DNA from: a virus
Length of the DNA stretch: 64,000 bases
Direction: 5' to 3' (one strand)
Virus genome (UHGV): UHGV-0120889
A program made the translations under genes and the position numbers. Positions 6,900-58,763 of this stretch are shown here, piece after piece. The notes below the pieces were generated by a model. It was not told the DNA's origin. It saw nothing but the letters and a program-made list of their open reading frames with translations, and ran no database searches. Position 1 is the stretch's first letter. Each line of letters starts with the position of its first letter.

Positions 6900-6902
6900 T
6901 TA

Positions 6903-7328
6903 ACCCTCATCGAAGCAAACCATGGTGTACTCAAGCCCTTGATGGTTAAGCTTATCTTGTACATACTCCATGTGGCAGTATTTTACAACAGCTCCCTTTT
7001 TGCTTCTATCCCACTTGCCAGTGTTCGGATCAAACCGTGGAAAAATGAACTTATGATCCTTCTCTCTGAACTTTGGCTTAATGTTTTCAGGCAGATCACT
7101 ATAAATAGCTACCGCTTTAGGCCATAGTCCACCCTCACCTTCCAACTGCGGGGTTGTTCTTCGGAACATAACCACAGAGCTGTGGGGGTCATCAATAATT
7201 TTAAGTGGCATCAATTGCAAGAGGAACGACTTGCCAGACCCTGCGGCACCGCCGATTACCAAAATATCTGCATCGTTTTCGAGGATCATCTTCTGCTTTT
7301 CAGAACACGGTCCGTAAATCTTAGACAT
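6903..7328 (-). CDS. terminase large subunit, exon 1 (N-terminal ATPase: Walker A and B)
   Basis: Walker A VIGGAAGSGKSF and Walker B MVCFDEG; frame hits TAA (6900-6902) immediately after the Gly codon, which is the first codon of the intron. Confidence 0.75.
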
Positions 7329-8671: not shown

Positions 8672-8679
8672 AAAAAAGG

Positions 8680-8776
8680 TGCTAGGTGATGGAATCGAAC
8701 CACCTATGTATTCAACGACTACCTCGTCTATTTTCAGGATTAAAAATCCTCGCCCTTGCCAAAGGGCTTACCTAGC
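8680..8776 (-). tRNA. atypical long tRNA-like gene (about 97 nt), anticodon uncertain (candidate UUU) or pseudo-tRNA
   Basis: Perfect 7-bp acceptor GCUAGGU/ACCUAGC, D-arm GCCC-UUUGGCAA-GGGC and T-arm GGUGG-UUCGAUU-CCAUC, but about 30 extra nt between a short AGGA/UCCU stem (loop UUUUUAA) and the T-arm; no encoded CCA. Confidence 0.4.
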
Positions 8777-37552: not shown

Positions 37553-38602
37553 ATGAATTTAACACCTCGCAGCACCATGGTACACGGCATGAAAGAAAAA
37601 CAGAACGGTTTCGAACCTATGAGTAATAAAATGTTTGGTATGCCGGGTGGTATTATGGAAACATACAGCTACCCAACACCTGTTGTTGACCACGTTCTTT
37701 ATATCGACGATTTGGAAGACCTGCAGGATCATATGTCTCGTCTGCAGACGATCCGTATGGCTCAGCCGGAAGAAAGCATTCGGGTGATCATCAATAGCCC
37801 TGGGGGTTGCGTGAACATTGCAATGGCTTATCTACAGGCATTCCGCGAGTCTCAGGCAAGCGTTGTTGCACATGCTGAAGGGATGTGCTGCTCTGCGGGA
37901 ACAATCTTATGGCTGGGTTGTAAAGAACGCACTGTGGCTCCGGACACAGAATTTATGTTCCACTACTATCAAGGTGGCACCTATGGTAATGGTGTGAACA
38001 TGAATACTCAGGTCAGCTACTGGAAAAAACGTTTTGAACGCCTGATCGAAAAATACTACGGTGGGGTGCTGACAGAAGATGAGATCGCATCCATCACAGC
38101 TGGTGGTGAAGTGTGGTTGGACGGAGAGGAGCTGGCAGCTCGAACTGGAGCCATCGTTCTGGATGAAGGCAACATACAGCGCATCCAGAACGGACAAAAA
38201 CCTAAAAAGCTTTTGGCAAAAGGTGATGAAGAAGGTGTGCTAGGTGAAGCAGGTCTTCCGGAGATTCACCAGTGCACCTCTTTAGATGAGCTAGTTCATG
38301 CTGTTGAATCTGCAAAAGCGGGTGGTTCGAAAGGTGATGTTCACACTGTGTTCCTGAACCTGCAGATGGAAAGTGGTGAGACCGTTAAGATTGCCTTAGG
38401 CGAGATTACCTCAGAAGATCTGCAGCGATTCTCTGTCGTTGAACTTCAAGACATTCTGTCCCAATTGAAGACAACCCTGAACGGCGGTGAAGAGGTTAAG
38501 GTAAAAGATAAGACTCGCAAGCGTCTGGTGGACAATATTATTAAAACAGCAAAAGAGCTCAATGAAAAAATCCTGGGTGCAGGAATTGTCGAAGAAGCTT
38601 AA
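37553..38602 (+). CDS. ClpP-family serine protease-like protein with C-terminal extension
   Basis: VIINSPGGCVNIAMAYLQAF and MCCSAGTILWLG resemble ClpP motifs; 349 aa, so about 150 extra C-terminal residues. Confidence 0.55.
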   Translation: MNLTPRSTMVHGMKEKQNGFEPMSNKMFGMPGGIMETYSYPTPVVDHVLYIDDLEDLQDHMSRLQTIRMAQPEESIRVIINSPGGCVNIAMAYLQAFRESQASVVAHAEGMCCSAGTILWLGCKERTVAPDTEFMFHYYQGGTYGNGVNMNTQVSYWKKRFERLIEKYYGGVLTEDEIASITAGGEVWLDGEELAARTGAIVLDEGNIQRIQNGQKPKKLLAKGDEEGVLGEAGLPEIHQCTSLDELVHAVESAKAGGSKGDVHTVFLNLQMESGETVKIALGEITSEDLQRFSVVELQDILSQLKTTLNGGEEVKVKDKTRKRLVDNIIKTAKELNEKILGAGIVEEA

Positions 38603-39468: not shown

Positions 39469-39744
39469 TTGTGTATTGTTGTTTTCAACAAGAGGGGGTC
39501 ATTTATGTACAAGTCATTTTCAATCTACTCAAGACAGGCGAAACACTACACAGAGATCCTGATCACTCAGAAAAAATTTGTGGAAGGTGAGTGGGAATAT
39601 CACCATAAAATGTTGCGTCCAGACTGGGTTTTTGATAGACTTATTGCTATGATCCCTCTCGGAGAAGTATACCCTCTGACAGCCCATCGCGATGCTTGGG
39701 ATTTAATTGATTACATAGATTCATTTAAGGAGCCTAGATTATGA
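39469..39744 (+). CDS. hypothetical protein
   Basis: 91 aa ORF. Confidence 0.35.
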   Translation: MCIVVFNKRGSFMYKSFSIYSRQAKHYTEILITQKKFVEGEWEYHHKMLRPDWVFDRLIAMIPLGEVYPLTAHRDAWDLIDYIDSFKEPRL

Positions 39745-40139
39745 AGATTGAGATTACTAAAGAAGGTAAGAAAGTGTCCGGCAACTATGCAACAGTAATT
39801 CGGGATTTAATGTTTGAAGCCACCAAGATCGGTACATCTAAAGTTGGTCAAACTGTTAGTGTGAAAAGTAATATCTCCACAGGAGAGAAGGTATTCATTG
39901 TGGTCAAAGGGCAGGATCCCGTGGAAGGAACAGTGGGCCGAGGTGGCTACCTGTGCATTTCTGAAGAGCCGCGTATGTTAGTGGCTGACGCTACTATGGG
40001 TGGGAAACGTGTGTGCGAGGCGGATGAGGTAATGATTATCCAACCTGTTGATCCAGATGACCCAGCAACTTGGGTGGTAGGAAATGAAATCTTCTCTTTA
40101 GAAGAGTTATCCTTCCCAGCACCGCGCTCTGTTCAGTAA
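39741..40139 (+). CDS. hypothetical small protein (N-terminus MKIEIT)
   Basis: 132 aa; shares N-terminal MK(I/V)EIT with several downstream ORFs. Confidence 0.4.
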   Translation: MKIEITKEGKKVSGNYATVIRDLMFEATKIGTSKVGQTVSVKSNISTGEKVFIVVKGQDPVEGTVGRGGYLCISEEPRMLVADATMGGKRVCEADEVMIIQPVDPDDPATWVVGNEIFSLEELSFPAPRSVQ

Positions 40140-40176
40140 TAATTTATCTTACCAGGGACGGTAGGTAGGAGGTAGC

Positions 40177-40410
40177 ATGAAAGTTAAATTTCTTACAGAT
40201 TTAGGGTACCCTTCCTTGGTTGACTGTGTTGGTAAAATTGTGGAAGCAAAACGGCTATCTGCAAACGAGAATGTTGTCCTGGTTAAAGGGAAGGATTTAC
40301 TAGCTGCAGGTGCAGAGTCTGGCAGGATCTCTCCTGATTATATGTATTACCTATCTTTAAGTAATCTGCCAGAGCGAGGCGGTAAAGGCCTTGAAGTTGT
40401 GGAGGAGTGA
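40177..40410 (+). CDS. hypothetical small acidic protein (C-terminus LEVVEE)
   Basis: 77 aa; family member. Confidence 0.4.
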   Translation: MKVKFLTDLGYPSLVDCVGKIVEAKRLSANENVVLVKGKDLLAAGAESGRISPDYMYYLSLSNLPERGGKGLEVVEE

Positions 40411-40940
40411 CAGGTATGCTTCTGATTAACTGGGAAGACCTCTATGGGGACAAAGACCCTGTTGCGTTTGTTGATCGTAGGTGGAGATACACTGAAGAAC
40501 AACTGGCGGCAAAAAATTTAACTGCAAAACGCAGAAAGATCATCCAGTGCAAGTACAAATACGCACAGTTTGCTGCAAAAGTGTCTCCACAAATCGAGAG
40601 CTTTGTGCTTAAATTGTATGACGAGTACCTCAAATTCAAATTGGATTTTGTGCAGGTGTACCGTGCACAGGTACGACCAGATACCAACATATGTAGATGG
40701 AAGGTTGTTTGTGACGGTAAAGATTTGCCGCTCAGCTTGACAATTGAGTGGCGTTATGGGTATCATGAGTGTGGTCTGTATGATATTTGGGATGTCATTG
40801 TAGATCCTGCTAAGCACCTGAACACAGAGGAGCTGGAATATATCAATAAGATTATTCTTGATATGTTTTTCAGCTACACCCGTGAAAACTCTGGGAAAGA
40901 ACGGGATAATTTTCTTGACACCCTCAGCGACCATTTGTAG
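40407..40940 (+). CDS. hypothetical protein
   Basis: 177 aa ORF. Confidence 0.4.
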   Translation: MTGMLLINWEDLYGDKDPVAFVDRRWRYTEEQLAAKNLTAKRRKIIQCKYKYAQFAAKVSPQIESFVLKLYDEYLKFKLDFVQVYRAQVRPDTNICRWKVVCDGKDLPLSLTIEWRYGYHECGLYDIWDVIVDPAKHLNTEELEYINKIILDMFFSYTRENSGKERDNFLDTLSDHL

Positions 40941-40970
40941 TATACAATTTAACCTACAAAGGGAGGCCCA

Positions 40971-41198
40971 ATGAGTATAAATGTTGTGCTAATAGGTTAC
41001 CTGGTAATATCCGTTATAACAGCGGTATTCTTGACAGGTATATGCATCGTGTCCAGACGAAGGGTGAAGTTTGATGATTTTATCACCATCATCACTGCTG
41101 CGCCTTTTTGGCCTGTTGTTATCTTCATCGTAATAATGTGCCTAGTTGATTACTACAAGAATATCCGGAAGGAGAGTAGGGATGGAGACCACACCTAA
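40971..41198 (+). CDS. small membrane protein (two predicted TM helices)
   Basis: Two hydrophobic segments VLIGYLVISVITAVFLTGICIV and AAPFWPVVIFIVIMCLV. Confidence 0.4.
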   Translation: MSINVVLIGYLVISVITAVFLTGICIVSRRRVKFDDFITIITAAPFWPVVIFIVIMCLVDYYKNIRKESRDGDHT

Positions 41199-41334
41199 AA
41201 CTGTTTATACTGTTCTTAAAGAGATTGCGTTCTACGCAGATCTTAGCCAGGCACCTTTATGGGAAAAGAGCATGTATTTAAAATGGTGCGTTAATTTAGG
41301 GAGACCTTCCAGTGTTTCAAGCCATGTTTATTGA
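41182..41334 (+). CDS. hypothetical protein
   Basis: Trimmed to ATG 41182 (RBS GGAAGGAGAG). Confidence 0.3.
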   Translation: METTPKTVYTVLKEIAFYADLSQAPLWEKSMYLKWCVNLGRPSSVSSHVY

Positions 41335-41417
41335 GATGCTATCTGGGGTATTGTTACTGGTAGCCATCTTAGGTGGTGCAGTTCTGATGTATAACTATCT
41401 TGAAAAAGGAGACAGCA

Positions 41418-41603
41418 ATGGCAAAAAATAAATCTTTAGAGCAGGCTGAAAACCTTCTCCACGAGCTGGTAAAGGAGTGGAAAGTTGAATACTCAGATTT
41501 TAATGCACGAGAGGGTGAAGATTATTGGCCTACGGAGCGCTCAGAGGGCGAATGGTATCAAGATTTTATAGAGTGGTTATATCAGACGTGCGATGAGGGG
41601 TGA
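41418..41603 (+). CDS. hypothetical protein
   Basis: Trimmed to ATG 41418 (RBS AAGGAGA). Confidence 0.35.
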   Translation: MAKNKSLEQAENLLHELVKEWKVEYSDFNAREGEDYWPTERSEGEWYQDFIEWLYQTCDEG

Positions 41604-42061
41604 CGATGTTTGTTAAATATGTAAAAACGTGCCTCAACAGTCTTGGCAGAGAGCATTGGTACACCTTACTTGAAAAAGGAGAAATTTTAACAAAATCTGG
41701 AAAGATAACTTTGATACCCTTGGACGATAAAGACCCGTCACTCCTTGTCATAGATGATTACGTTACAGGTGTGTCGTACGAGGTCTCTGTGGAGAGGTTA
41801 ATACGCAGAGCTGGCGGCCCTTATGACCGAAGAGAGTATATTTTCGATTCTGTTACAGAGAAGGAAGATCCGTCTCTAATGTTCAGGATGGTAATCAGGG
41901 ATATGAAATCATCTATAAATAGGATCGTAAAGGACATTAAGGAGCCTTTTAGGGTAAAAGTTAAGAAGTTTTTTGATTCTAAGATTAACATACTTGCCGT
42001 TGTGCTAGGCGTAATTCAACTTCTGTTAATTTTGCACTATCTTGAACTGTTGTTTAAGTAG
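41600..42061 (+). CDS. hypothetical protein with C-terminal TM segment
   Basis: 153 aa; C-terminal ILAVVLGVIQLLLILHYL. Confidence 0.4.
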   Translation: MTMFVKYVKTCLNSLGREHWYTLLEKGEILTKSGKITLIPLDDKDPSLLVIDDYVTGVSYEVSVERLIRRAGGPYDRREYIFDSVTEKEDPSLMFRMVIRDMKSSINRIVKDIKEPFRVKVKKFFDSKINILAVVLGVIQLLLILHYLELLFK

Positions 42062-42121
42062 TGTGCAATAAGGCACAAAGGATGTGCCATAACTAAATAA
42101 ACTAAGAAAGAGGTAGAGAGA

Positions 42122-42469
42122 ATGCCAAAGATTAAATCGATATTAATGTGGGTAGCTGTTGTAGCTTTTGTAGGATACTGGACTTGGGAAACTGAATTAA
42201 AAGATATTGGATATACTAGTTTTGAGAGCAAGGCGTGCATTGGTATAACCGATGCGTTCAGGCAAAATGCTATGGATCACGAATGTGTTGATGCAGATAT
42301 AGATGAGAAACTGTCTAAGGACAAAGATTTTTACCATGGGCATGCTTTGCTTGATAGTGGTGATACTGTAGAGTTCTGGTCGTGGTTCCGTGAAGATGGA
42401 ACAATAAAAACAGCAGTAAAGATCTCTAACAAAGAGTTAATGCTGTTGCAGCAGAAGGAGGCTCAATGA
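42122..42469 (+). CDS. hypothetical protein with N-terminal signal/TM
   Basis: 115 aa; N-terminal ILMWVAVVAFVGYWTW. Confidence 0.4.
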   Translation: MPKIKSILMWVAVVAFVGYWTWETELKDIGYTSFESKACIGITDAFRQNAMDHECVDADIDEKLSKDKDFYHGHALLDSGDTVEFWSWFREDGTIKTAVKISNKELMLLQQKEAQ

Positions 42470-42753
42470 TCTGGATATCCTATGCTGATGGCACCATGCT
42501 GTATACTGCAGGTACCAGATATGAAGTTCAGGAGAACGATAAAAAATTTATCGTAAGAACATTTGACAAGGACGACAACCTTTTGCTAGAATTGACTTAC
42601 AAGGTTGGAGAGGTATCCAATATCCAATTGGATTGTGGTCATAAAGATAATCCACTCAAAAAACCTGGAATAGGCAAGGCTTCAGAAGAACGTTTGTCTC
42701 GTATTGCAGAAAGCGTTTCTACACAAAAATCTAAGAAGGGGACTAGAAAATGA
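42466..42753 (+). CDS. hypothetical protein
   Basis: 95 aa. Confidence 0.4.
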   Translation: MIWISYADGTMLYTAGTRYEVQENDKKFIVRTFDKDDNLLLELTYKVGEVSNIQLDCGHKDNPLKKPGIGKASEERLSRIAESVSTQKSKKGTRK

Positions 42754-42944
42754 AAAACTTACGTTTTAACACTTATTACTACAACACATTGAATGATTTG
42801 TACTATATTGTTCGAAGTAAAAGTCCTGAAACAGTCCTATTCTGCCGTGAACCTTTCAAAGGGGAGGAAGTAGAGTCTGAGATGAATGTTAGCCAAATCA
42901 CCTCTTTGTTGCTCTCAGGCGCAATGGAAGAAGCAATATTCTAA
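42750..42944 (+). CDS. hypothetical protein
   Basis: 64 aa. Confidence 0.35.
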   Translation: MKNLRFNTYYYNTLNDLYYIVRSKSPETVLFCREPFKGEEVESEMNVSQITSLLLSGAMEEAIF

Positions 42945-42962
42945 ACCGGGCGGGAGGGTTTT

Positions 42963-43148
42963 ATGAAGCACTATTGCCTGTCTGGTAGAATGGGTGCAGA
43001 TTGTGATTGGGTTTTCTTAAAACTTGTCAGCATTCGAGAGTTCATCCCAGAGGAAGAGCAAGAAAGCGAGCTGATGTCATGGATCAACCATTATGGTAAC
43101 ACTTTTCGACATGTTAAGGTAGAAGAGTTGCCAAGCGAGGCTGATTGA
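42963..43148 (+). CDS. hypothetical protein
   Basis: 61 aa. Confidence 0.35.
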   Translation: MKHYCLSGRMGADCDWVFLKLVSIREFIPEEEQESELMSWINHYGNTFRHVKVEELPSEAD

Positions 43149-43243
43149 CTATGATTGCATCAATATTAACGTTTATGGGTGGCGTGGCATTCGGATTCAT
43201 TGTTTGCCTGTTTATAGTGATTATGTCTATGCGAGGCTGAATT

Positions 43244-43540
43244 ATGAAACTTTTTGAGTGGTTTAAAAAGTTTAAATATAAAGCTGTAGCCATCGTGCCG
43301 TGGTCAATTCAGTGGGTTGATGAAGGTGGTCTACCAATACCTGGTGACAAAGATACTGGGTACTGGATTATGATGGAGAACGGGTTTGGAAAGCGAAAGT
43401 ATACGTGCACAAACTCTACTCGATCTGCACTTAATAGAGTGCCTGGTTACAAACTTATGGTTGTGTGGAAAATGTCAGGCGTCCCTCCAGCCAATGCTCA
43501 ATTTCTTACTGACAATCCTACCACGGTAGAGGAAGATTGA
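43244..43540 (+). CDS. hypothetical protein
   Basis: 98 aa. Confidence 0.4.
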   Translation: MKLFEWFKKFKYKAVAIVPWSIQWVDEGGLPIPGDKDTGYWIMMENGFGKRKYTCTNSTRSALNRVPGYKLMVVWKMSGVPPANAQFLTDNPTTVEED

Positions 43541-43824
43541 TAATGAAAAAGATTAACAGTAGTGAAGTCGAGTTTAAACTTGTCGGAAAAGGCACTTACT
43601 GGGAAGTTCGTCAAAAGGTATATTTGTTCGGTCTTATTCCTTACTGGTCTAAATTCTACTGGGGAGCTAACGAGTGGGGAAGATACGCCACCAAATCAAT
43701 GGCACTTATTGGTATAGCAGAGTACATTGCAGCCAGAGATAGGGTTGGAGACACTTATTACTATACTGCGGACGATATTCGTAACAGTGTTTACGTCCCA
43801 CAACCACCTGATAGAGACCGTTGA
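43537..43824 (+). CDS. hypothetical protein
   Basis: 95 aa. Confidence 0.4.
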   Translation: MIMKKINSSEVEFKLVGKGTYWEVRQKVYLFGLIPYWSKFYWGANEWGRYATKSMALIGIAEYIAARDRVGDTYYYTADDIRNSVYVPQPPDRDR

Positions 43825-44047
43825 TGAAAGTTAAAGTTTTAGATTCAAGCTTCTATATTGGTCAGGAGCCCTTAGTGGGGAAGTGTTTACTGCTGTCCCT
43901 AACGAAGATTACCCCGACCTTTTAAAAATAAAAGGAGCAGACCTGATCACCGCTGGTGCACCTGAATATTATTTCGGGGAAGAGTCCTATTATACCTTTG
44001 GGGTAGGGTCAGATGCAGATATTGTAGAGCTGTGATGGGTAACCGTT

Positions 44048-44446
44048 GTGAAAAATAAACTGTTCAAAGTTACAATGAAAATTCGCGGAGCTTGGAGCGT
44101 AAAGCAAGGGCGTATTCCAGAATTTGAGAAAGACTTCTACGTAGTCTCCACCTCGGAGGAGGCTGCATGCTGGCAAGCTGGCTATGCCTATGCAAGAACC
44201 TGGTACGAAGGATACCAGACTGGGGGCTATGACGGAGAAATTATCAGCAAGGGTGTAGAAGAAATTAATGTGTTGACAAGTGAAAAAGTTTTTGTTATAG
44301 TGCATCCAGATTCCAGAGTGAAGCATTACTGGAATGCCAGAACAAAAACTTGGACACCGTTTGCAGATTCTGCTACGCCACTTTTAAACCAGAAAGCTCT
44401 TGACTCTGCCCCAAGTTATGGGGTTGTTGAAGAAAAGCTAAACTGA
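44048..44446 (+). CDS. hypothetical protein, paralogue of 46253-46648
   Basis: Shares FV(I/M).HP.S...YW and (T/E)WTP with 46253-46648. Confidence 0.45.
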   Translation: MKNKLFKVTMKIRGAWSVKQGRIPEFEKDFYVVSTSEEAACWQAGYAYARTWYEGYQTGGYDGEIISKGVEEINVLTSEKVFVIVHPDSRVKHYWNARTKTWTPFADSATPLLNQKALDSAPSYGVVEEKLN

Positions 44447-44463
44447 AACAGTGAGGTGCCACT

Positions 44464-44754
44464 ATGATGGATTTAGTTCTGAATATTGATAACGCAGGAG
44501 AGCTTAAAGACGATGGTGTAACAAGCATGGACAAACCCTGCTCTGCCGAGGTTGACTCAAAATGGACCTACAAGTTTGACGGAGAGATCTTCGCAAATGA
44601 TGAGAAGGTTGTAGATGCTGCAGCCATTTTGAACGCTTTAGGGTACGACCCTGTGAATTCTTTGATCAAGGATCCTGTTGAGTTTGCAGAGTATGTTCGA
44701 AAAATGGCAGATCTTGCTGTGGATATTTTAAAAACTATCGATAACAAGCTGTAA
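44464..44754 (+). CDS. hypothetical protein
   Basis: 96 aa acidic. Confidence 0.4.
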   Translation: MMDLVLNIDNAGELKDDGVTSMDKPCSAEVDSKWTYKFDGEIFANDEKVVDAAAILNALGYDPVNSLIKDPVEFAEYVRKMADLAVDILKTIDNKL

Positions 44755-44760
44755 AAACTG

Positions 44761-44789
44761 TTGACACAACGCTTCAGATTTAGTATCAT
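44761..44789 (+). promoter_or_regulatory. sigma70-like promoter (TTGACA-N17-TATCAT) upstream of HPF-like gene
   Basis: TTGACA at 44761-44766, TATCAT at 44784-44789; followed by leader hairpin AGAGGG-TTTGGTT-CCCTCT plus TCTTT (44799-44822). Confidence 0.55.
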
Positions 44790-44836
44790 TGTTTTCAAAG
44801 AGGGTTTGGTTCCCTCTTCTTTAAAAGGAACACGTT

Positions 44837-45154
44837 ATGCAAATTGAAATCACTGGCAACGTAGAAATCACTGAAGGTATGGTGTCTTTCATTTCCCACA
44901 AAATGTCTAAGCTGGAGCGTTTGCACCCCTCTGCCAACTATGCACGTGTGAGTGTAAAAGTTGAAAATGATCACCAGGAAGTTATGGCGTTCATTTTTGA
45001 CAATTCCGGAAAAGAAGTTATTGCCAAAGCTAAAGGTAGCGATGCTTACGAGGCAACTGACCGTATGGTAGATGTTGCAGCACGTCAGCTGGCTAAATGT
45101 GGTGGAAAGAAAGGTAAGGGGAAAGGCAAAGTAAAGATTGACTTTGTAGAATGA
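44837..45154 (+). CDS. hpf: ribosome hibernation promoting factor homologue (HPF/YfiA/RaiA family)
   Basis: MQIEITGNVEITEGM...KLER...VSVKVEN...AKGSDAYEATDRMVDVAARQLAK tracks E. coli HPF (MQLNITGNNVEITEAL...KLEQ...LKVEK...AEGQDMYAAIDGLIDKLARQLTK) as recalled; Lys/Gly-rich tail. Confidence 0.7.
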   Translation: MQIEITGNVEITEGMVSFISHKMSKLERLHPSANYARVSVKVENDHQEVMAFIFDNSGKEVIAKAKGSDAYEATDRMVDVAARQLAKCGGKKGKGKGKVKIDFVE

Positions 45155-45291
45155 GGTGCTACAATGAGCGTGATTAAGAAATTAGTCCCAAATGTAGAGA
45201 TTGCATGCTTTGAAATTATGTTTGCAATCGCAGTTGTAGTTAATGTGTTAGGTTACGGCTATTAATATCAAATAATTGAGGAGACCTCTAA

Positions 45292-45561
45292 ATGAAAATT
45301 AAATTATTCAAAACTGAGCTGGCAGACAAAAACTGTGGACTGGTTGAAGGCATGATTGTTGAAGCACAACCAGTGGACTATATGAAGGTGGTTCGTGATG
45401 CCCTGGGTGAAGGTTTTGATCTGATGGAGCCAGCTCTGCGAGAAGATGTTATCGAGATGGCTAAAAAGCACACACCTGAGGGTTTGGTGGTGTTTGTTGC
45501 ACCTGGTAATGGAGAAGAGTTGATTGTAACTCCTGATGTGTATGAGATTGTAGAGGAATAA
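45292..45561 (+). CDS. hypothetical small acidic protein (MKIKL..., C-terminus YEIVEE)
   Basis: 89 aa; family member. Confidence 0.4.
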   Translation: MKIKLFKTELADKNCGLVEGMIVEAQPVDYMKVVRDALGEGFDLMEPALREDVIEMAKKHTPEGLVVFVAPGNGEELIVTPDVYEIVEE

Positions 45562-45652
45562 TCCTGCTTGGATTAGCATACTTCCTCGCTAAGGAAGATT
45601 TGTAATTATTTGTGGGAAAGGAATCCCAATCTCTTACCAGAGGTGATACTAT

Positions 45653-45916
45653 ATGATTGTTTATTTTAAAACTTCAGGTGGATACCCTGATTCTCAAAGC
45701 TTGATCGGAAAAACGTGCACAGCATACTCACCTCTTGATGAGGAGGTAAGTGATATTCTACGAAATATGTATCGGATTGACCCCCAAGAAGCTTTTGATC
45801 AAAACCTTGTATTTGTCAAGGGCTCAGACATGAAGTCTTTGGGAGCATTCCCTGAAGCAGATGATGATGCCGTTTATTCGTTCATGACTCCTTTTGAAGC
45901 TATGGTTGTTGGGTGA
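45653..45916 (+). CDS. hypothetical small acidic protein
   Basis: 87 aa. Confidence 0.4.
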   Translation: MIVYFKTSGGYPDSQSLIGKTCTAYSPLDEEVSDILRNMYRIDPQEAFDQNLVFVKGSDMKSLGAFPEADDDAVYSFMTPFEAMVVG

Positions 45917-45920
45917 TAAT

Positions 45921-46253
45921 ATGAAAGTACGCTTTATTGGTGAAACAATTCCTGTGCATCTCCGGTCTCCTGAGGATTCTGCAGATCTTGCATCTCAAAA
46001 GGCGAGAGGTTATGATAAGAAAGTAACCTCAACTGATGTAGTGCTTGAGGCTACTAGTCTACCTGACCCTGCTGCATTCTTTAATCATTATGGGTACTAT
46101 TTCAGCAATCTGATGAATATCGGTGAGCTTGTGTTTATTAGTGGTGGAGAGATTGTTAGCAAGCTTGGCGGCGATCCGGATGTCTTTCATGAAACCTGTC
46201 CTTTTGCATTTGTGGTAGGTTCAGATGTGGAAGTTATTGAGGAGGTGCGGTAA
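45921..46253 (+). CDS. hypothetical small acidic protein (C-terminus VEVIEEVR)
   Basis: Trimmed to ATG 45921 (MKVRFIGE...). Confidence 0.4.
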   Translation: MKVRFIGETIPVHLRSPEDSADLASQKARGYDKKVTSTDVVLEATSLPDPAAFFNHYGYYFSNLMNIGELVFISGGEIVSKLGGDPDVFHETCPFAFVVGSDVEVIEEVR

Positions 46254-46648
46254 TGGTAAGCCTATACCGTGTTGAGTATAGCTCAGATACTGTATACAAC
46301 GTAAGAAGCAAAGATCGCAGCGACAGAGTGCAAGAAATGTATGTTCTTGCCGACAGTCCGTTATCTGCAGCGTTCAAGGCAGGGGCTCTTGCATCTCGTT
46401 GGAAATTTGAAGGCGGATCTTTCTATGAAGAAACCCTTGAAGATTCTGTTGTTATTTCTTCTGTAGAGGTTTCAGATGACTACGAAGGGAAAAAGTTCGT
46501 AATGCGGCACCCACACAGCAACATTGCGTACTACTGGGATGTTCTGAACAACGAGTGGACCCCAGATCTTCAGAAGGCTACTGTGCTAACACCGTTTTTG
46601 GCAGATAAGTTCCCACCAGAAGGTAATTTATCCGCACTGTTTCAGTAA
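46253..46648 (+). CDS. hypothetical protein, paralogue of 44048-44446
   Basis: 131 aa; KKFVMRHPHSNIAYYWDVLNNEWTP versus KVFVIVHPDSRVKHYWNARTKTWTP. Confidence 0.45.
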   Translation: MVSLYRVEYSSDTVYNVRSKDRSDRVQEMYVLADSPLSAAFKAGALASRWKFEGGSFYEETLEDSVVISSVEVSDDYEGKKFVMRHPHSNIAYYWDVLNNEWTPDLQKATVLTPFLADKFPPEGNLSALFQ

Positions 46649-46724
46649 TTTTCTTGCACACAGGTGTTGACAACGCCAACCCTGTGTGAAATAATACCTT
46701 CATCTTAACAAGACAGGAGACCGA

Positions 46725-46985
46725 TTGATGAAGATTAAATTGAAAAACCTTGAAACGGCAGAGATTCAGGACGGTGTTGATTTCCGTTCTAAAGATGGTG
46801 ACATCTTAGAGGTAAATATTCCAACCTACGAGCTGATTAAAGGTTTTGGCAACGTTCCGGAAGAGGATATTACAGAAATTCTTATGATGTTGATTCTTGA
46901 CGGAACTGTGTTTGTAGGTGAAGGTGAGAACGCTATTGCAATCCCAGGCCATTTTTATGAAGTAGTTGACGAAGAGGTGCTGTAA
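46725..46985 (+). CDS. hypothetical small acidic protein (MMKIKL..., C-terminus YEVVDEEVL)
   Basis: 86 aa; preceded by TTGACA 46667-46672 and AATAAT -10. Confidence 0.4.
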   Translation: MMKIKLKNLETAEIQDGVDFRSKDGDILEVNIPTYELIKGFGNVPEEDITEILMMLILDGTVFVGEGENAIAIPGHFYEVVDEEVL

Positions 46986-47336
46986 ATGAAAGTAGAAATT
47001 ACTGGTTTTGATGTTAATGTGGTTCCGGAAGATATTTTAGCTAAACTTCCGGAAGGTTTTGGTAACGGTGTTGTGGTGGATGCTGTTCCTCCTACTAAAG
47101 ACATTCTGCTGCAGTATGGTGTAGCAGAGGAAGATGTCGATAAAGTTCTTACAATGATGGCAATCGATCGTGTTGTCGTTGTTAAAGGTCTCGATAATTT
47201 TGAGAGTGATCCACTGATTATTCGTGGAGATGACTACAAAATCATCGATAATGAAGGCCAAGAGTTCTATGAGCCTTGTGCAGAAGATATTCTTAACTTA
47301 TTACTGGAAGCAGGCACCGAAGAGGAGGACGAATAA
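46986..47336 (+). CDS. hypothetical small acidic protein (MKVEITG...)
   Basis: 116 aa; N-terminus resembles the HPF-like ORF. Confidence 0.4.
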   Translation: MKVEITGFDVNVVPEDILAKLPEGFGNGVVVDAVPPTKDILLQYGVAEEDVDKVLTMMAIDRVVVVKGLDNFESDPLIIRGDDYKIIDNEGQEFYEPCAEDILNLLLEAGTEEEDE

Positions 47337-47665
47337 TGAAGATTGACCCGTTACTGAAGGCTCGTGCAGAAAAAGCGTACACCATTAAGTTGACCAACTT
47401 GGTTCCTACTTGTCATCCGGATGTAGGTTGGCCCGAAGGTTTGGTGGAGGGAACTGTAACAGCTGCATACCTTCCTAACATCAAATACCTCATGGAAATC
47501 TTGGAGCTGGATGAGGAAACGGCAGAAGAGTTCCAGTTGGACATGAAACAAAGTGGGACTCTGGTTATTCACGGGTGGTACAATACTAAAGATGTAGAAG
47601 ACCCTCTGGTAACTTCTAATCTGGCATATGAAATCTTAGGGCCTTTGAACCTGGAGGAAGACTAA
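47336..47665 (+). CDS. hypothetical small acidic protein (C-terminus YEILGPLNLEED)
   Basis: 109 aa. Confidence 0.4.
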   Translation: MKIDPLLKARAEKAYTIKLTNLVPTCHPDVGWPEGLVEGTVTAAYLPNIKYLMEILELDEETAEEFQLDMKQSGTLVIHGWYNTKDVEDPLVTSNLAYEILGPLNLEED

Positions 47666-47952
47666 TGAAAGATCTGGTTAAGATTAAGATTAAAGATACC
47701 AATGGAGAACTCAGCCATTTTGGAATTAATGATGGTGACGAGCTGATCGCACACCTGCCTACCAAGGAGGTTGTAAGCAAAGCAGTTGCCGGAGAAGAAG
47801 CTGCAATGCAGGCTGCAGGTGTGGATGAAAACTATGTAGCTATGTGCATGTGCCGAGATCAGGTTGTTCTGTATAAAGCGTATCGACCAAACGGAGCCAC
47901 GGAGTGGCTTGTATTCCGACCCGAAGGATATGAAATCTTAGAGGCACTATGA
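47665..47952 (+). CDS. hypothetical small acidic protein (C-terminus EGYEILEAL)
   Basis: 95 aa. Confidence 0.4.
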   Translation: MKDLVKIKIKDTNGELSHFGINDGDELIAHLPTKEVVSKAVAGEEAAMQAAGVDENYVAMCMCRDQVVLYKAYRPNGATEWLVFRPEGYEILEAL

Positions 47953-48032
47953 TAAATCTTGCCAAGGTTGCAACGGCACTGTTAATTATTTGCTGGTCAG
48001 TAACCTTAACACTGTGTCTTGTATTTCAGTGA
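47949..48032 (+). CDS. micro-ORF encoding 27-aa hydrophobic peptide
   Basis: MINLAKVATALLIICWSVTLTLCLVFQ; ATG overlaps upstream stop (ATGA); below track cutoff. Confidence 0.3.
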   Translation: MINLAKVATALLIICWSVTLTLCLVFQ

Positions 48033-48041
48033 GGTGCTTGT

Positions 48042-48305
48042 ATGAACATCCTGATGTGGGTTATAGCAGTGGCGTTTGTTGCATGTTTTTGCTGCTGGGT
48101 TGCGGTGAGGATTTCTGTAGCTACCCTTCGGAAGTTGGGGTTCTCAGAATGGGATATTAATATCCTTTCTTTTCGCAATGAAACAATCTCAGCCGCCCTG
48201 CTTTGTAAGAAATTTAAGTGGGAACCTTGTGAGGTCATGAGCTATCTAAGAACAGGCGATATCCCTGAAAGATTTAAAAAAGTTCTTGACGGCAAGGATA
48301 AATGA
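48042..48305 (+). CDS. small membrane protein
   Basis: N-terminal ILMWVIAVAFVACFCCWVAV; 87 aa. Confidence 0.4.
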   Translation: MNILMWVIAVAFVACFCCWVAVRISVATLRKLGFSEWDINILSFRNETISAALLCKKFKWEPCEVMSYLRTGDIPERFKKVLDGKDK

Positions 48306-48460
48306 CAGTATAGTGACTAACAAGAGGTGAGGGGTGACTGATTTTACTGAAGCTTTAATGATGGCCTTGTCTGTTTTAGCGCTATCGGTGTGTTTTGGGG
48401 CGTTATTCACATCTCTGGTTAAAGTTTTACATACAGTATTATTACCCAAGGAGCGCAGTA

Positions 48461-48712
48461 ATGACGAAGATTGACTTGAATGCTGGTGATCATGTTGTTG
48501 TCAAATGCGTTGGAGATTATCTTGGATTCACAATCGGCAATACTTACGAGGCGGTAGTGGCGAAGGTTTATCATGATAAAGTCCTCAGTCTTGTATTTGA
48601 CTGTGATGATGACGGAGATGACCGTTACGTCTGTGAGGTGCTGGCTCGTGACGATAGTGAAGACCAGAAATTCCTGGTTATTGAACTGAACGGTATTTTT
48701 GTAGAACGTTAA
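48461..48712 (+). CDS. hypothetical protein
   Basis: Trimmed to ATG 48461 (RBS AAGGAG). Confidence 0.4.
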   Translation: MTKIDLNAGDHVVVKCVGDYLGFTIGNTYEAVVAKVYHDKVLSLVFDCDDDGDDRYVCEVLARDDSEDQKFLVIELNGIFVER

Positions 48713-48740
48713 TTTAAAACAACATAAGGAGACTCTTACT

Positions 48741-49046
48741 ATGGCTAAATCTAAAGTTGAACTGTTCACCTCTCTTCCTTCTGACACTGCAGAACGTGAT
48801 CGCCTTCGCAAAACAATTGAAGAACTGGTGGAACTCCAGCTTCAGATTAAAGATTTGAAAGATGCCATCAAGGATATCATTCTTGTTGAGAAGCAGGATC
48901 ATCTGTATTCTCCTAAATTCATCAAATCTTTGGTGGCTACAGAGTTTGATATCCGCTACGAAGCTGAAAAACGTCGCGCTAAGATTGAAGAAGAGGTTGA
49001 GCACATGTCTGAGGCAGACATTCTGTTCAAACGCTCTGTAGAATAA
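48741..49046 (+). CDS. hypothetical protein (charged, coiled-coil-like)
   Basis: 101 aa. Confidence 0.4.
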   Translation: MAKSKVELFTSLPSDTAERDRLRKTIEELVELQLQIKDLKDAIKDIILVEKQDHLYSPKFIKSLVATEFDIRYEAEKRRAKIEEEVEHMSEADILFKRSVE

Positions 49047-49047
49047 T

Positions 49048-49419
49048 ATGGCAGAGGGGCCCCTCTTTCACTATTTGCAAAAGGAACCAGCTATGAGAAT
49101 GCCAATCACTGTGAAAGAGCTAAATGAACGTGATGCAGGTGGTCTATGGCCTGCACGAAAAATCCGCTGCGTCTATATGAAAGAGAATCTTGAACATCTT
49201 GATCAACAGATCAAGGTCGGTGATATTTTCGAGGTCTTCTATTCCAATCGTCGCAACTGGGAAACCATTCAGCCTTCTGGTTTTGTTCTTGCCAAACTTG
49301 ACACTGGAGAAGTGATTATTCCTGGGTTGGATATTGTCTTCGAAATTATCCAGGAGTGGGATCCGGATAAGATTAGATATGAAGAGTTATTCGGTGAAGG
49401 TATTATCAAACCTGTGTGA
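49048..49419 (+). CDS. hypothetical protein
   Basis: 123 aa; true start may be internal ATG (MRMPITV). Confidence 0.4.
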   Translation: MAEGPLFHYLQKEPAMRMPITVKELNERDAGGLWPARKIRCVYMKENLEHLDQQIKVGDIFEVFYSNRRNWETIQPSGFVLAKLDTGEVIIPGLDIVFEIIQEWDPDKIRYEELFGEGIIKPV

Positions 49420-49727
49420 GGTGGATTATGTCTACAAAGGCGGCTAAATACTCCTATATGCCATCAACCTCTGCAGAGGTAGACTTTAGTTTCGATGTGT
49501 TTCCACTGTTTGAGGTGGTTCTGGCATACCCAACAATACTATCTACTCCTGAATCACTTGTGCCTGTTAAGTTGCAGAACGCTATGCATTCCATGCACTA
49601 CAACAACAAATGTAGGCACAGATGGTGTCAGGACGAGGAAAAAGATTTGGATAGTTTGAGAGATTTTGACAGTCACCTTTTGACACCTTTCAGCTACTCC
49701 AACCTTGATAAGCCCTCGTGGGTATAG
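49416..49727 (+). CDS. hypothetical protein
   Basis: 103 aa. Confidence 0.35.
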   Translation: MRWIMSTKAAKYSYMPSTSAEVDFSFDVFPLFEVVLAYPTILSTPESLVPVKLQNAMHSMHYNNKCRHRWCQDEEKDLDSLRDFDSHLLTPFSYSNLDKPSWV

Positions 49728-49751
49728 CAAAATATCAAATTTAAGACACCT

Positions 49752-49779
49752 AGGACGCTCTGTGGCGTCCTTTTCTTTA
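49752..49779 (+). terminator. rho-independent terminator
   Basis: Hairpin AGGACGC-TCTGTG-GCGTCCT followed by TTTCTTTAT. Confidence 0.65.
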
Positions 49780-49940
49780 TCTGGTGCACGATTGCATACC
49801 TTGGGTAGTTAATCTCATTACAGAGCGTTTAAGAGCTCCCTACAAACAACTCCATATTTCGAGCGTAGCGAGAACGCACGTCCGTTTTGACCCAAATCAC
49901 CATACGCTCGGATTTTAACCAAACCCTCGCGGCGTTTCTG

Positions 49941-49969
49941 TTGACACATTGCCGATCCAGTGATAGTAT
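49941..49969 (+). promoter_or_regulatory. sigma70-like promoter (TTGACA-N17-TAGTAT)
   Basis: TTGACA 49941-49946, TAGTAT 49964-49969. Confidence 0.45.
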
Positions 49970-50001
49970 CCACACATAGTTTGTAGAATATGGAGTACAC
50001 A

Positions 50002-50091
50002 ATGAGAACATTGTCCGAAGTTTTAGTGGTGATCCTGATGATCATTACGTCCATAGTGGCTGTTGCCGGAATACTCACGGGTGGAACATGA
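50002..50091 (+). CDS. micro-ORF encoding 29-aa hydrophobic peptide
   Basis: MRTLSEVLVVILMIITSIVAVAGILTGGT; stop overlaps next start (ATGA). Confidence 0.3.
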   Translation: MRTLSEVLVVILMIITSIVAVAGILTGGT

Positions 50092-50300
50092 TAAACACAC
50101 ATGCATCTGAAGAGACATCCAAAGGAGTGACTATATGTCCCTTGACTGAGCCAGTGAAAGAGGAAAACTTCGATTCTGAAGATTCTCCATCTTCGCTCCA
50201 GGTAGATCCTGAGGTTGATGACCTAACGTGGGAGGACATCGTAGATATCTGGTTCTCTATTATGCCTGAGCACGAAGAGTTCAGGGGCGGCAGACTATGA
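50088..50300 (+). CDS. hypothetical acidic protein
   Basis: 70 aa. Confidence 0.35.
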   Translation: MINTHASEETSKGVTICPLTEPVKEENFDSEDSPSSLQVDPEVDDLTWEDIVDIWFSIMPEHEEFRGGRL

Positions 50301-50422
50301 AGCACCGAGCCCACACAGGTTCCTCATGCTAAAGCATGGCCTGAAGAGGCAAACGTGCATAATTCCAGCGTATTGGAACGCATAAAACCCTGTTCACACT
50401 CTCATTTTCCAGAGGAGATTTC

Positions 50423-50638
50423 ATGAAGATAGAAATATTTGGTGGAGCTGACAACACTCGTGGCCTGATTTACCTTGAATTCGAGGAATCATACCTGCCA
50501 GAGGTGTTAAATATAGACTCTGTTGCTGAGGCTTTGGGAGTAAACCCTAAAGAACTCCACTCTTGTGCTGAGATCGATGGTTGGGAAGAGACCATGAACA
50601 TTGATTTCAGTGAAGTAGAGGATGAACCGCTGGACTGA
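50423..50638 (+). CDS. hypothetical small acidic protein (MKIEIFGG...)
   Basis: 71 aa; family-like N-terminus. Confidence 0.4.
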   Translation: MKIEIFGGADNTRGLIYLEFEESYLPEVLNIDSVAEALGVNPKELHSCAEIDGWEETMNIDFSEVEDEPLD

Positions 50639-53102
50639 CACACAATTAGCTGCCCGGCTAAAGTGCTGGAAGCACCTATAACACATCTTTCAACTAAATT
50701 TCCTACCACCACAATCACTTACCTCCCACACATGACTGTTTGCTTGTTTAGTGAGCAGTCATGCCTTGACATTCTTGCCTATCTTGATAAAATTAAGTTC
50801 TTCTCTTTTCTTTTACCGAGTAATTCGGGTTTTCTGTTCTCTTCGGTTTGAAGGGGTATGGAGATACACCTGAGTGAACAGGGTGAACAACCGAACCTTT
50901 GGCTATGGCATTAGCATGGCGAAGCGGACGGGTGACGAAAGAGGGGCCGGAGGACACCAGTCACTGCCATATGATATATGGGTGATAACCTGAAGAGTCT
51001 GAATAAGTGTTTAAGTACCAGTCAGAGGAAAAGGTGAATGGTAGCCGAAGGGGGAGGGGGGTTTCTTGTATCTTTAATTTGTATATTATGTATACACTTG
51101 TAAACCAACACCATCTGAATTTGTTTACCACAGAAAGCGGATAGAGACAAATATTACCTATTAAACTTGAATTATTTATAGAAAATACCACAACACCACT
51201 TAAGTATTTGATTTTACACATAAATCCTACAGATATTCACCCTCCATATTTAACATACTTGTAACATATTCCATACTCTACCTGTCTGATCAATTTCCCC
51301 AACTACACCCACCATATTTTCCCTGTCTGTACCACCCCTGACCCGCCGGGAGTCCCGTCATATCTGGCTTTCCAGCAAATATCACACCCACAAATATCAT
51401 TGCCTGAAGAGGGTTTCATCCCATAATACATGCCTTACCTGAAGAGCGCTTCATACACCACGTAAATTTTTTAATTGACCCCCTCCCCGCCGCCGGAGAG
51501 GTTGTCTTTTCCCACACAGACCTGAAGAGTCAGTCAGAAATATCTGAATGGACCCAATTCTGCCCTGTCATGAGCGGTAGCGACTGGAGTGCTGCCAGGC
51601 GGACGAAATGGGAATACTTCTCATTCTTATAATAATTCTCAAATATCGAGGCAGTGAGGAAAATTAATAGGTGAGGCCGTTCACACAGTGGCACAACATT
51701 TGCAACCTATCTTGTGGGGGTGAATGAGAATACCTATCATTGTGAGAATAGTTATCATTACGGGCAATTTAACATAATACCCATTATGCGCACCACTGGC
51801 GATCCATACAGGGATTGATAACATGAGTTACAGTTTACGCATATAACAATCATATTTCTTACTATTTGTGTGGGATATAGTTAGCAGCCGATAGATTAGA
51901 TATTGACCTGTGGACTTCCAACCATCTAGACGTCTAAACGCCCACACAACAAGGATTATACATACATTACTGAATGTAAACAGGGCCGCAAAAATGCTAC
52001 CATACCAGTTTGTAAATTTTTCATGCAGCACTTGACAAAGAGGAGGAAAACTTGTCTGACATAATGTGACCTAACTGACACAACATGACACTTTTACACA
52101 CCTATTAGTTTACACACTGGATTGTTTACATTCCTGATTGTTCACATGCTAACCATTTACATGATTGACTGTTTACACACCGATAATCAGCCATGCCATT
52201 CGTTTGCATGACAATAATTATACATGACAATAATCGCACTGATTATAATTAGCATGACATAATATAAAAGCAGGGCAACTATTAGCAGATCTATAGTTGC
52301 CTTGCTTGTCATGTCATGATTAACTAAATACAAGGCAACTATGATCTGATTAATAGTTTGCAGACAAACTATCACGGGGGTGATGGTTACTGCTTTTATA
52401 TTATGTCGCGACTCCGTCGCGCCATGCCATTCGTTTGCATAGTTGCCTTATTGTTACAGGTAAAATAATTGTATTGTTAATTATTTCTTATCTTTCTATT
52501 AGTCATCTAATGATTCCAGTTAGTATAGTAACGTACAGTAAACATTAGACGACTAAAGATTTCTCTGCTTATGATAACCTAACGTGACAATTTCAGACTG
52601 TTTACGAAAAATGTTGACACCTGAGCTGATTTATGTTATGCAGTTTACACGAATAATTATTTTATGCAGGTATTGACTATTCCGTTATTCTATGGTTGGA
52701 ATAAATACTTAGCAGACTATAGAATGGTGAGCGTACGTAAATTCTGAGATCTGTCGGCTATAGTTATACTCGATTTTTCACGTAGAACACGCTTTTTGGT
52801 TTGTGTAAGTGTATGACTTATAAAGATTTTTAGTTGTTGACAAGATATTGGAGATGTGCATCAGATTAAATTTTGTGCAATAGCTACATTACGTGCACTT
52901 TTGGAAGAAAAAACGTGTAAAAATGGCCCTGCTACCACACAATGAAAGATTATGCAATAGTTATTTTATATGTATATTTGTACAGTGTGTGGGATTAATG
53001 GCTAGTCAATTATTCCACTTGCCAGGTAGGGCCGTTTATGGTAGGAGAAGAGCAGACAAAAAGAAAGGGGCCTTTAAGCCCCTTGATAATTCAATTAAGA
53101 AA

Positions 53103-58192: not shown

Positions 58193-58414
58193 TTAGTAGT
58201 GACGTGGTTTACAATGGCCCCCAGGAGTCCTATCACCACGCACACCACAAGAAAAATTATCTCCGCTGTTGTTCGATCCATTGTTATAAAATTCCTCAAG
58301 ATCAGGCCTGAAAATAAAGCGTTCGTTATTGAATCCGTCACGCCAGGCGGCTGGCTTCAAATCTTCACTAAAGGGATTAATTAACGTGGCGTTATTTAAA
58401 CGGCTGGTCCACAT
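58193..58414 (-). CDS. hypothetical protein (overlaps an alternative-frame TM ORF 58156-58341)
   Basis: Two overlapping candidate frames; cannot choose by eye. Confidence 0.25.
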   Translation of the reverse strand: MWTSRLNNATLINPFSEDLKPAAWRDGFNNERFIFRPDLEEFYNNGSNNSGDNFSCGVRGDRTPGGHCKPRHY

Positions 58415-58763
58415 ATTTTCTATTCCTCTCAAATAGGCGATCCGCCTCAGTTAAACATATCTCATGGGCTTGGTCTCTGGTTTTAGCCTCATCAAAAACC
58501 TGTTGTGCCAGGCTGCAGCGTAGGGAGACTGGAAGATCACTATAATAGGCGTTGACAAACGTTTGTGCGTCATACAGGTCGGAAAACACTTTACCCTTTC
58601 TATTATCGCCCTTGTCAACAATTGCAAGGATAACCAATACAATAGTTGCAACCACTCCCAGGAAAATAGATATAACAAACCATAGAAAAGCGGATCTACC
58701 TATCTTGCCAGCGATCCAGGCGTTGAACAAGGCAACTACTACAGCCAAAATAATAAATTCCAT
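58392..58763 (-). CDS. membrane protein (two predicted TM helices)
   Basis: Trimmed to ATG 58761-58763 (MEFIILAVVVALFNAWIAG...FLWFVISIFLGVVATIVLVILAIV). Confidence 0.45.
   Translation of the reverse strand: MEFIILAVVVALFNAWIAGKIGRSAFLWFVISIFLGVVATIVLVILAIVDKGDNRKGKVFSDLYDAQTFVNAYYSDLPVSLRCSLAQQVFDEAKTRDQAHEICLTEADRLFERNRKYVDQPFK

Follow-up and report, generated by a model that had tools for sequence, protein, structure and literature searches.

In this analysis, we will focus on an array of small genes in the virus genome UHGV-0120889, of which a stretch of 64,000 nucleotides, hereafter the window, was studied. The array lies within the region 39741-50638 and comprises eleven small genes that fall into three paralog families, termed B (five genes), C (four loci) and A (two genes). 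The best explanation, and in our view the probable one, is that of an old accessory array of three paralog families, two of them SH3-like, whose products would act as binders of host proteins. The parts of this explanation do not carry the same weight: the families and their fold are put forward with high confidence, the binding of host proteins as a tentative proposal. The three-family grouping and the link that we describe between B and C are new to the present analysis. By its sequence, the window comes from an rV5-like Escherichia coli phage (Vequintavirus): along its entire length, the region shares 97-98% identity with Vequintavirus genomes (PMBT16, WalterGehring and rV5 variants), and 116 database records span at least 80% of it.

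Three paralog families in one array

The original prediction had described the region as a single family of at least eight open reading frames (ORFs), specific to this lineage and expanded in tandem. All of the ORFs that it named are found in the window, and lineage-specific local duplication is what we observe, but the members form three families and not one. This is hardly visible from single sequences: BLASTP and phmmer give one clear pair, 44048 and 46253 (E=3e-11), the other links being marginal, and a tblastn search with 46986 against 50,697 phage records returned only orthologs of at least 90% identity and did not detect its own paralogs. As the phage collection holds no relatives below 90% identity, ortholog profiles had to be drawn from L009, a divergent, syntenic rV5-like contig that was retrieved through a B homolog and whose orthologs are 35-90% identical. 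We compared 35 ortholog-group profiles all against all with hhalign (595 pairs), and nearly all of the top-ranked pairs fall within A, B or C, with within-family P values from 1.5e-18 to 7e-4. Most of the ORFs are thus similar well beyond their termini, while 39741 and 50423 resemble the others at their first residues only.

Family B is strongly acidic (net charge -6 to -21, pI 4.05-4.8) and all of its genes are on the + strand. It comprises 45292..45561 (89 residues, net charge -10) and four contiguous genes, namely 46728..46985 (85 residues, net charge -13), 46986..47336 (116 residues, net charge -21, with an acidic C-terminal tail), 47336..47665 (109 residues, with a 14-residue N-terminal extension) and 47665..47952 (95 residues). 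The hhalign values that connect them are P=1.2e-7 over 82 columns for 46728 and 46986, 3.4e-6 over 84 columns for 46986 and 47336, 6e-4 over 77 columns for 45292 and 46728, and 6.6e-4 for 46986 and 47665. At the level of single sequences, phmmer relates 46728 to 46986 at 1e-5, and the L009 ortholog of 46986 matches 47336 at 1e-5. An iterative hidden Markov model (HMM), run on the 452 ORFs of the window together with five-fold shuffled decoys, recruited 47665 in round 1 and converged on exactly these five genes; 45292 was admitted at E=9e-4, the best decoy being at 0.16, and the final model gives each of the five members at least 87 bits and the best decoy 8.9. The common pattern is MKIKL..G..G.IVEA.P, a helical insert, then VVvv....LIv..YE(I/V)VEE, over 85-116 residues.

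Family C is represented by three intact genes and one damaged locus, again all on the + strand. The gene at 40177..40410 (77 residues, MKVKFL...LEVVEE) is an outlier upstream of the core array, which extends from 43824 to 47952; it matches PHROG 5009 at E=8e-36 and aligns to gp087 of phage APECc02 at P=8e-11. The gene at 45653..45916 (87 residues) aligns to APECc02 gp086 at P=1.4e-7 and to 40177 at P=7e-6, and matches PHROG 5009 at E=1.2e-4. That at 45921..46253 (110 residues) carries a longer insert between strands 1 and 3 and aligns to gp086 at P=1.1e-7 and to gp087 at P=6e-6. The damaged locus, 43824..44035, is a hybrid whose N-terminal part comes from gp087 and whose C-terminal part comes from gp086, and its fragment 43883-44035 matches PHROG 5009 at E=6e-20. 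Taken together, the hhalign pairs among 40177, 45653, 45921, gp087 and gp086 range from P=1.5e-18 to 2.7e-5, and the profile matches contain the GK..A and G.DLIAAGA motifs of the family pattern, MKVKxL..G..GKvV.A..v.vkG.DLiaaGA..Y.F..(L/V)E(V/I)VE (about 70-110 residues). An iterative HMM seeded with two C sequences admitted a decoy at 14 bits and was dropped, so that membership of family C rests on PHROG 5009, which unites three of the loci, and on the ortholog profiles.

The two genes of family A, 44048..44446 (132 residues) and 46253..46648 (131 residues), both on the + strand, each lie directly 3' of a C gene, the latter with a 1-nt overlap. They align to one another at P=6e-12 over 122 columns and are united by PHROG 7379 (E=4e-74 and 2e-66, respectively). 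In the opposite small-gene block, the ORF 58193-58432 (- strand) gives a weak match to the family A HMM (E=0.005, 11.7 bits against 4.7 for the best decoy), as does its apparent counterpart in WalterGehring (E=0.021); from its sequence, it may be a remote third A member outside the array.

Members of the families make up 11 of the 13 genes within 43824-47952, the exceptions being 44464 and the hibernation promoting factor (HPF) gene discussed below. In the complete 140.7-kb WalterGehring genome, the family HMMs find 5 B, 5 C and 2 A genes, all at 99,067-107,102, the counterpart of the array, and no further members over the rest of that genome. Two of the ORFs originally placed in the family are left out. 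The product of 39741..40139 (+ strand, 132 residues, PHROG 5748) aligns to B over residues 1-10 only (P=0.015), and that of 50423..50638 (+ strand, 71 residues, net charge -16, PHROG 12108) over residues 1-8 only (P=0.011); neither is matched by any family HMM. For these two and the HPF gene, likeness to the families stays within the first 7-16 residues, at hhalign P values of at least 0.011. On these comparisons, 39741 and 50423 are not demonstrable family members.

The PHROG collection already holds the same proteins, since the genes of the window match their own PHROGs at E values of 1e-36 to 1e-76. The equivalents are 5009 for the core of C, 13920 and 13661 for other C genes, 11868, 12359, 12155, 12457 and 12794 for the five B genes, and 7379 for A. 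Family B is thereby split into five and C into three, and no relation between families, fold or function is given.

Shared termini, predicted barrels and the HPF gene

The resemblance of the termini from which the original prediction started is real and non-random. Starts of the type MK(I/V)(E/K)(I/L) are concentrated in the region; that of 47336 (MKIDP) fits only loosely. In the window, a strict start, M(M)K[IV][EKRD][ILFV], is found in eight ORFs of at least 50 residues; seven of them are on the + strand within 39741-50638 and the eighth, 57298, is on the - strand outside it. As the region represents about 17% of the window, this is far above chance (binomial estimate of about 3e-5), and a frameshift conceals one more such start, MKVKV at 43824. 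The acidic C-terminal ending, scanned as [YLVF][EDK][IV][IVL][EDG] at most 6 residues from the stop, also holds, with five matches among the 452 ORFs, all five of them inside the region. The tight packing of the genes is likewise confirmed by ATGA overlaps at 39741, 42466 and 42750, 1-nt overlaps of the TAATG type at 43824, 46253, 47336 and 47665, and adjoining genes (0 nt apart) at 46986.

As evidence of homology, however, the pattern is weaker than it looks. An MK start is uninformative by itself, since 16 of the 34 genes of the block begin with it, and at five junctions the codons for the C-terminal Glu residues also supply the Shine-Dalgarno site for the following gene, to which translation is coupled (GGAGGAG, GAGGAGG, GAAGAGG, GAAGAGGAGGA and GGAGGAA). 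The question is thus whether anything beyond these signals unites the families, and the predicted structures are informative in this respect.

AlphaFold2 models were built for one B protein (45292) and one C protein (40177) on alignments of paralogs and database homologs. The B model (mean predicted local distance difference test score, pLDDT, 90.2; predicted template modelling score, pTM, 0.69) has strands at 2-5, 22-27, 66-69, 76-79 and 84-88 and three helices at 30-60; the C model (pLDDT 94.5, pTM 0.82) has strands at 2-5, 21-27, 30-37, 56-60 and 72-76 and short helices at 12-17 and 38-43. Both have the five strands, superposable on SH3 and KOW domains, of an SH3-like small beta-barrel, both have SH3/KOW barrels as their best structural matches, and they share the same best match in the PDB. 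The structure prediction that had been suggested as a check on a shared fold thus returns a common SH3-like class, and B and C are predicted to be five-stranded SH3-like barrels, B with a helical insert. The conserved termini then have a structural reason, because in the models MK[IV]K[LF] is strand 1 and (Y/L)E(I/V)VE is strand 5; these terminal strands presumably adjoin in the barrel, which would explain why the two ends are alike.

The structural likeness extends to eukaryotic SH3 domains, the KOW domains of NusG/Spt5, the C-terminal domain of a PhnA-like protein (2akl) and OapB (7k9b). It is a likeness of fold that allows no transfer of function, the identity to these PDB proteins being 4-20% with no Pfam or PDB sequence match. 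B differs from its SH3-like relatives by a 30-residue helical insert and C by the conserved G.DLIAAGA helix. Judged on sequence, neither family belongs to the canonical SH3 domains, since no SH3 Pfam model matches at E<=1.

The profiles also connect the two families. With alignments trimmed to the core, hhalign aligns B and C at P=1.4e-4 (probability 53%) over 60-66 collinear columns, pairing strands 1, 2, 3 and 5 and leaving the B helices in a gap. The score, 26.0, exceeds those of 150/150 column shuffles (mean 8.7, maximum 21.4) and, when the first five columns are kept fixed, again those of 150/150 shuffles (mean 14.4, maximum 25.2); against the other 30 ortholog groups, B or C never reaches a P value below 0.005. 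Another run, with a larger C alignment, gave P 1e-5 over 28 columns and was discarded as an artefact of low-complexity acidic tails. From the collinear alignment and the shared predicted fold, we consider it likely that B and C have a common ancestry. Both families would most likely descend from one ancestral barrel, B having acquired three helices that separate strands 2 and 3, while C has the short helix (G.DLIAAGA) after strand 3.

The alternative is that the shared termini are convergent: B, C, 39741 and 50423 would be unrelated, and translation signals together with the design of beta-strands would make their ends alike. ATGAAA(A/G)TT is a favoured initiation context, the codons of a terminal Glu-Glu (GAGGAG) also act as ribosome-binding site for the coupled gene, and this is compatible with the frequency of MK starts and with the five junctions described above. 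PHROGs, although clustered by remote homology, leave each B gene in its own family; the first B-C comparison, made with five sequences per family, reached only 28 N-terminal columns (P=0.011); and B proteins are absent from the best 50 viral matches of a Foldseek search with the C model. With richer profiles, however, B and C are collinear from end to end, at a P value of about 1e-4 and above all of the shuffles that keep the N-terminal columns, and the two models have the same strand order in addition to the same best PDB matches. The ending ...E(V/I)(V/I)E is, moreover, kept in C proteins of unrelated metagenomic phages and in fused domains, despite a different downstream context, and YEIVEE ends 45292 although the next gene is 91 nt away. 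We therefore regard convergence as doubtful, and common descent of B and C as the reading to retain.

A further proposal, that the small proteins were diversified from the HPF-like gene embedded in the array, does not survive. This gene, 44837..45154 (+ strand), encodes by sequence a short ribosome hibernation factor of the HPF/RaiA type: it matches PF02482 at E=1.8e-12, with 48.3 bits against a Pfam gathering score of 23.7, and residues 1-89 of its product align to E. coli HPF (2rql, 6h4n) at E values of 5e-12 to 2e-11. Compared with E. coli HPF and RaiA, the protein has a Lys/Gly-rich C-terminal tail. The gene is probably of cellular origin, and a phage-encoded hpf has previously been reported in rV5 (PMC6969025).

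Descent of the paralogs from such a gene had been suggested by its start, MQIEITGN, which resembles MKVEITG and MKIEIT nearby, and would accord with the name of "sigma 54 modulation factor" given to the 45292 ortholog in several GenBank records. That start, though, is a trait of the HPF family and was not taken from the neighbours: MQ(L/I)xITGN is conserved in the family, and MQIEITG-NVEITE in the phage protein corresponds to MQLNITGNNVEITE, with which cellular E. coli HPF begins. None of nine B, C or 39741 proteins matches PF02482 (Ribosomal_S30AE) even at E<=1, and hhalign pairs no more than 7-8 residues of B or C with HPF (P=0.1-0.3). The HPF fold has the order beta-alpha-beta-beta-beta-alpha. 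The models differ from it, with five strands and a central helical insert in B, and five strands and two short helices in C. The HPF gene is outside the families of the array, with no detectable similarity to them, and an origin of the paralogs from it is barely credible. The label of 45292 is found in the APECc02, ECP2309, nimi, ime and S127 BCL3 records (including the orthologs in L001 and L004); it is unsupported, given the lack of a PF02482 match and the prediction of an SH3-like barrel, and looks like an error propagated from the neighbouring HPF gene.

Distribution, history and selection of the array

Families A and B were found only in rV5-like phages, for A after a wide search. Family C is far more widespread: an exhaustive HMMER search with its profile recovered 83 representative clusters, most of them of 63-90 residues and starting at residue 1. 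In a few of these proteins the domain occurs two or three times in tandem, and a single fusion was found, to DUF3310. C homologs with 41-43% identity are common in lambdoid prophages of E. coli, where they lie among the small genes that separate the Q antiterminator from the holin gene, and others are found in metagenomic phages. The structural neighbours of the C model in BFVD are all uncharacterised small phage proteins, several of which, to judge from consecutive accession numbers, appear to come from the same genomes. On L013, an unrelated small phage contig, two adjacent C genes (71 and 107 residues) at 3990-4775 are followed by the gene of an HTH_3 regulator and are divergent from the portal gene; such an adjacent pair means that tandem duplication of family C happened independently elsewhere.

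Within the array, the duplications are old, because the only direct repeats that a search detected between paralogs at the nucleotide level were motifs of ribosome-binding sites and start codons, none longer than 32 nt. Only gp087 and gp086 are close enough in sequence to have recombined: about 250 bp were lost between these adjacent genes, which left the hybrid at 43824-44035 in place of both. The hybrid also lacks 1 nt in a GGGAAAG run near 43881-43884, so that its frame is broken, and it is either a pseudogene or a sequencing error; in-frame hybrid C genes of 70 residues exist elsewhere, for instance P0015. The gene order C-C-A ... C-C-A, with A directly after C both times, suggests that a multi-gene unit was duplicated. 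We thus propose that the array grew by ancient local duplication, the C-A pair as a unit and B as a run of four genes, and that neighbouring paralogs would still be reshuffled by recombination. In L009, the first A gene is absent and other genes are inserted.

For every A, B and C gene, the ratio of nonsynonymous to synonymous substitution rates (dN/dS) is 0.03-0.22 in comparison with two relatives of about 90-95% identity, so that all three families are under purifying selection. B and A diverge somewhat faster than ClpP and PhoH, since their L009 orthologs are 35-56% identical compared with 69-74%, and are still constrained. These values also bear on the idea that such small ORFs, devoid of database annotation, are chance reading frames or artefacts of gene calling. 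This is practically negligible as an explanation, given the purifying selection, the preservation of the ORFs in L009 at 35-73% amino acid identity and in synteny, their ribosome-binding sites and their confidently predicted folds. Elsewhere in the block, 41616-42061 (+ strand; PHROG 7821, "virion structural protein", with a hydrophobic C-terminus) has a dN/dS of 2.2 and 2.6 against the two relatives (nonsynonymous to synonymous differences of 16:2 and 31.5:3.5), all other genes of the block being below 0.6; it is either under strong diversifying selection or annotated in the wrong frame.

Expression, possible function and genomic surroundings

The array region is the distal end of a long + strand gene block, in which nucleotide-metabolism genes, a PhoH-like ATPase, a ClpP-like protease and a methyltransferase are followed by about 34 small genes, nearly all of them annotated as "hypothetical". 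The expression of the block seems connected to the host: 12 of the 13 promoter-like sites with at least 10/12 matches read in the direction of the genes (+ strand), and several occupy the gaps ahead of the HPF gene, 45292 and 46728, with perfect TTGACA boxes among them. A consensus scan places these putative sigma-70-like promoters, all on the + strand, at 44761..44789 upstream of the HPF gene (TTGACA, 17 nt, TATCAT), at 45138..45165 upstream of 45292 (extended -10) and at 46667..46695 upstream of the run of four B genes (TTGACA, 17 nt, AATAAT, extended -10). The rV5 genome paper reports only host-type promoters across the unit (PMC3606486). Host RNA polymerase would thus transcribe the genes from several sigma-70-type promoters, probably early, and translation would be coupled from gene to gene, the spacing in the array being 0 or -1 nt with Shine-Dalgarno sites.

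Gene clusters by which virulent phages take over their host, and acidic inhibitors such as the DNA mimics Ocr and Arn, resemble the array in being small, acidic, dense, lineage-restricted and variable in copy number. The array shares with takeover clusters its place in a non-structural block, and it has homologs in moron positions of prophages. Its accessory character is further indicated by the C homologs between the Q antiterminator and the holin gene and by the C pair that heads an HTH_3 operon. We may thus picture the small, soluble and mostly acidic products as stand-alone protein-binding modules, each neutralising a different host protein, the likeliest targets being basic or nucleic-acid-binding host proteins, or defence proteins. 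Several points weigh against this picture. Searches of Pfam, PDB sequences and BFVD viral structures return nothing characterised for the paralogs, and no match to a characterised takeover or anti-defence protein in sequence or structure. Family C is only mildly acidic (net charge -1 to -8), and within the genus the dN/dS values show no trace of an arms race. Early timing derives from consensus promoters, whose total in the region is mildly above that of shuffled sequence (41 against 30 +/- 5). Lastly, the B-C link consists of a weak profile score (probability 22-53%) and of models that were compared through their strand order and best PDB matches.

The presence of the HPF gene in the array invites a different reading, in which ribosomes or translation factors would be the targets of the acidic SH3/KOW-like proteins and the block as a whole would reprogramme host translation. 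The gene lies in mid-array in 119/119 related genomes and in the divergent contig L009, KOW domains, whose partners include ribosomal proteins, are among the structural neighbours, and a strong negative charge would suit basic ribosomal proteins. Adjacency within a densely packed accessory block is nevertheless weak evidence, the C genes of prophages and other phages have no HPF gene close by, and the fold matches are generic, so that we regard this reading as improbable. Its strongest form appears slightly more improbable still: A, B, C and HPF would constitute one translation-takeover module, in which acidic barrels dock in a KOW-like manner on basic ribosomal proteins or translation factors, each paralog being adapted to its own ribosomal or factor surface. 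Together with the phage HPF, the barrels would either shut down host ribosomes selectively or shield them for use by the phage.

Binding of diverse host proteins thus remains the function that we favour, tentative as it is, and a part in host takeover or anti-defence, as originally predicted, would be plausible. If the proteins do inhibit host proteins, the array would amount to a compact collection of SH3-like binders with different targets. For the time being, it is a tidy but unsurprising accessory-gene expansion, and its interest is modest because such expansions of small genes are commonplace in large virulent phages. The practical gain is in annotation: rV5-like phages of broad host range are used in therapy and biocontrol, and about one third of their genome consists of unannotated small genes. 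Eleven "hypothetical proteins" are here reduced to three families, two of which gain a predicted fold, family C is found to be common to lambdoid prophages and other phages, and the propagated misannotation of the 45292 ortholog is corrected. The literature search returned the report of the rV5 hpf gene and nothing on families A, B and C or their fold, which, within the literature searched, appear to be undescribed.

Several observations concern the surroundings of the array. The ClpP-like protease gene (37553-38602, + strand) lies just upstream of it, and a 2026 preprint on phage proteases that activate immunity by CBASS (cyclic-oligonucleotide-based antiphage signalling system) mentions Vequintavirinae (PMC12991175). 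Downstream, the last gene of the block stops at 50638, and about 2.4 kb free of genes (~50700-53100) separate it from a convergent block of small genes on the - strand. In this gap, GC content falls to its minimum in the window (0.379 at 52-54 kb). A 20-nt sequence is repeated exactly and in direct orientation at 52190 and 52421, an 18-nt inverted repeat at 52256 and 52390 is perfect, and an Rfam scan of the gap found no family at gathering score. The gap might be an origin or a regulatory region, and is probably the same as a "non-coding" box on the rV5 genome map (PMC3606486).

Two RNA features lie elsewhere in the window. A group I catalytic intron (RF00028) is found at 6634-6912 (- strand; 84.3 bits, E=5.5e-20, full-length model), where it presumably interrupts a gene that relatives annotate as joined around homing endonucleases. 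A cluster of seven tRNAs includes an unusually long tRNA-like gene of 99 nt at 8678-8776 (- strand), to which ARAGORN assigns a four-base anticodon and no identity and Rfam only 35.5 bits; at what is apparently the same position of the cluster, WalterGehring is annotated with a 97-nt tRNA-Lys.

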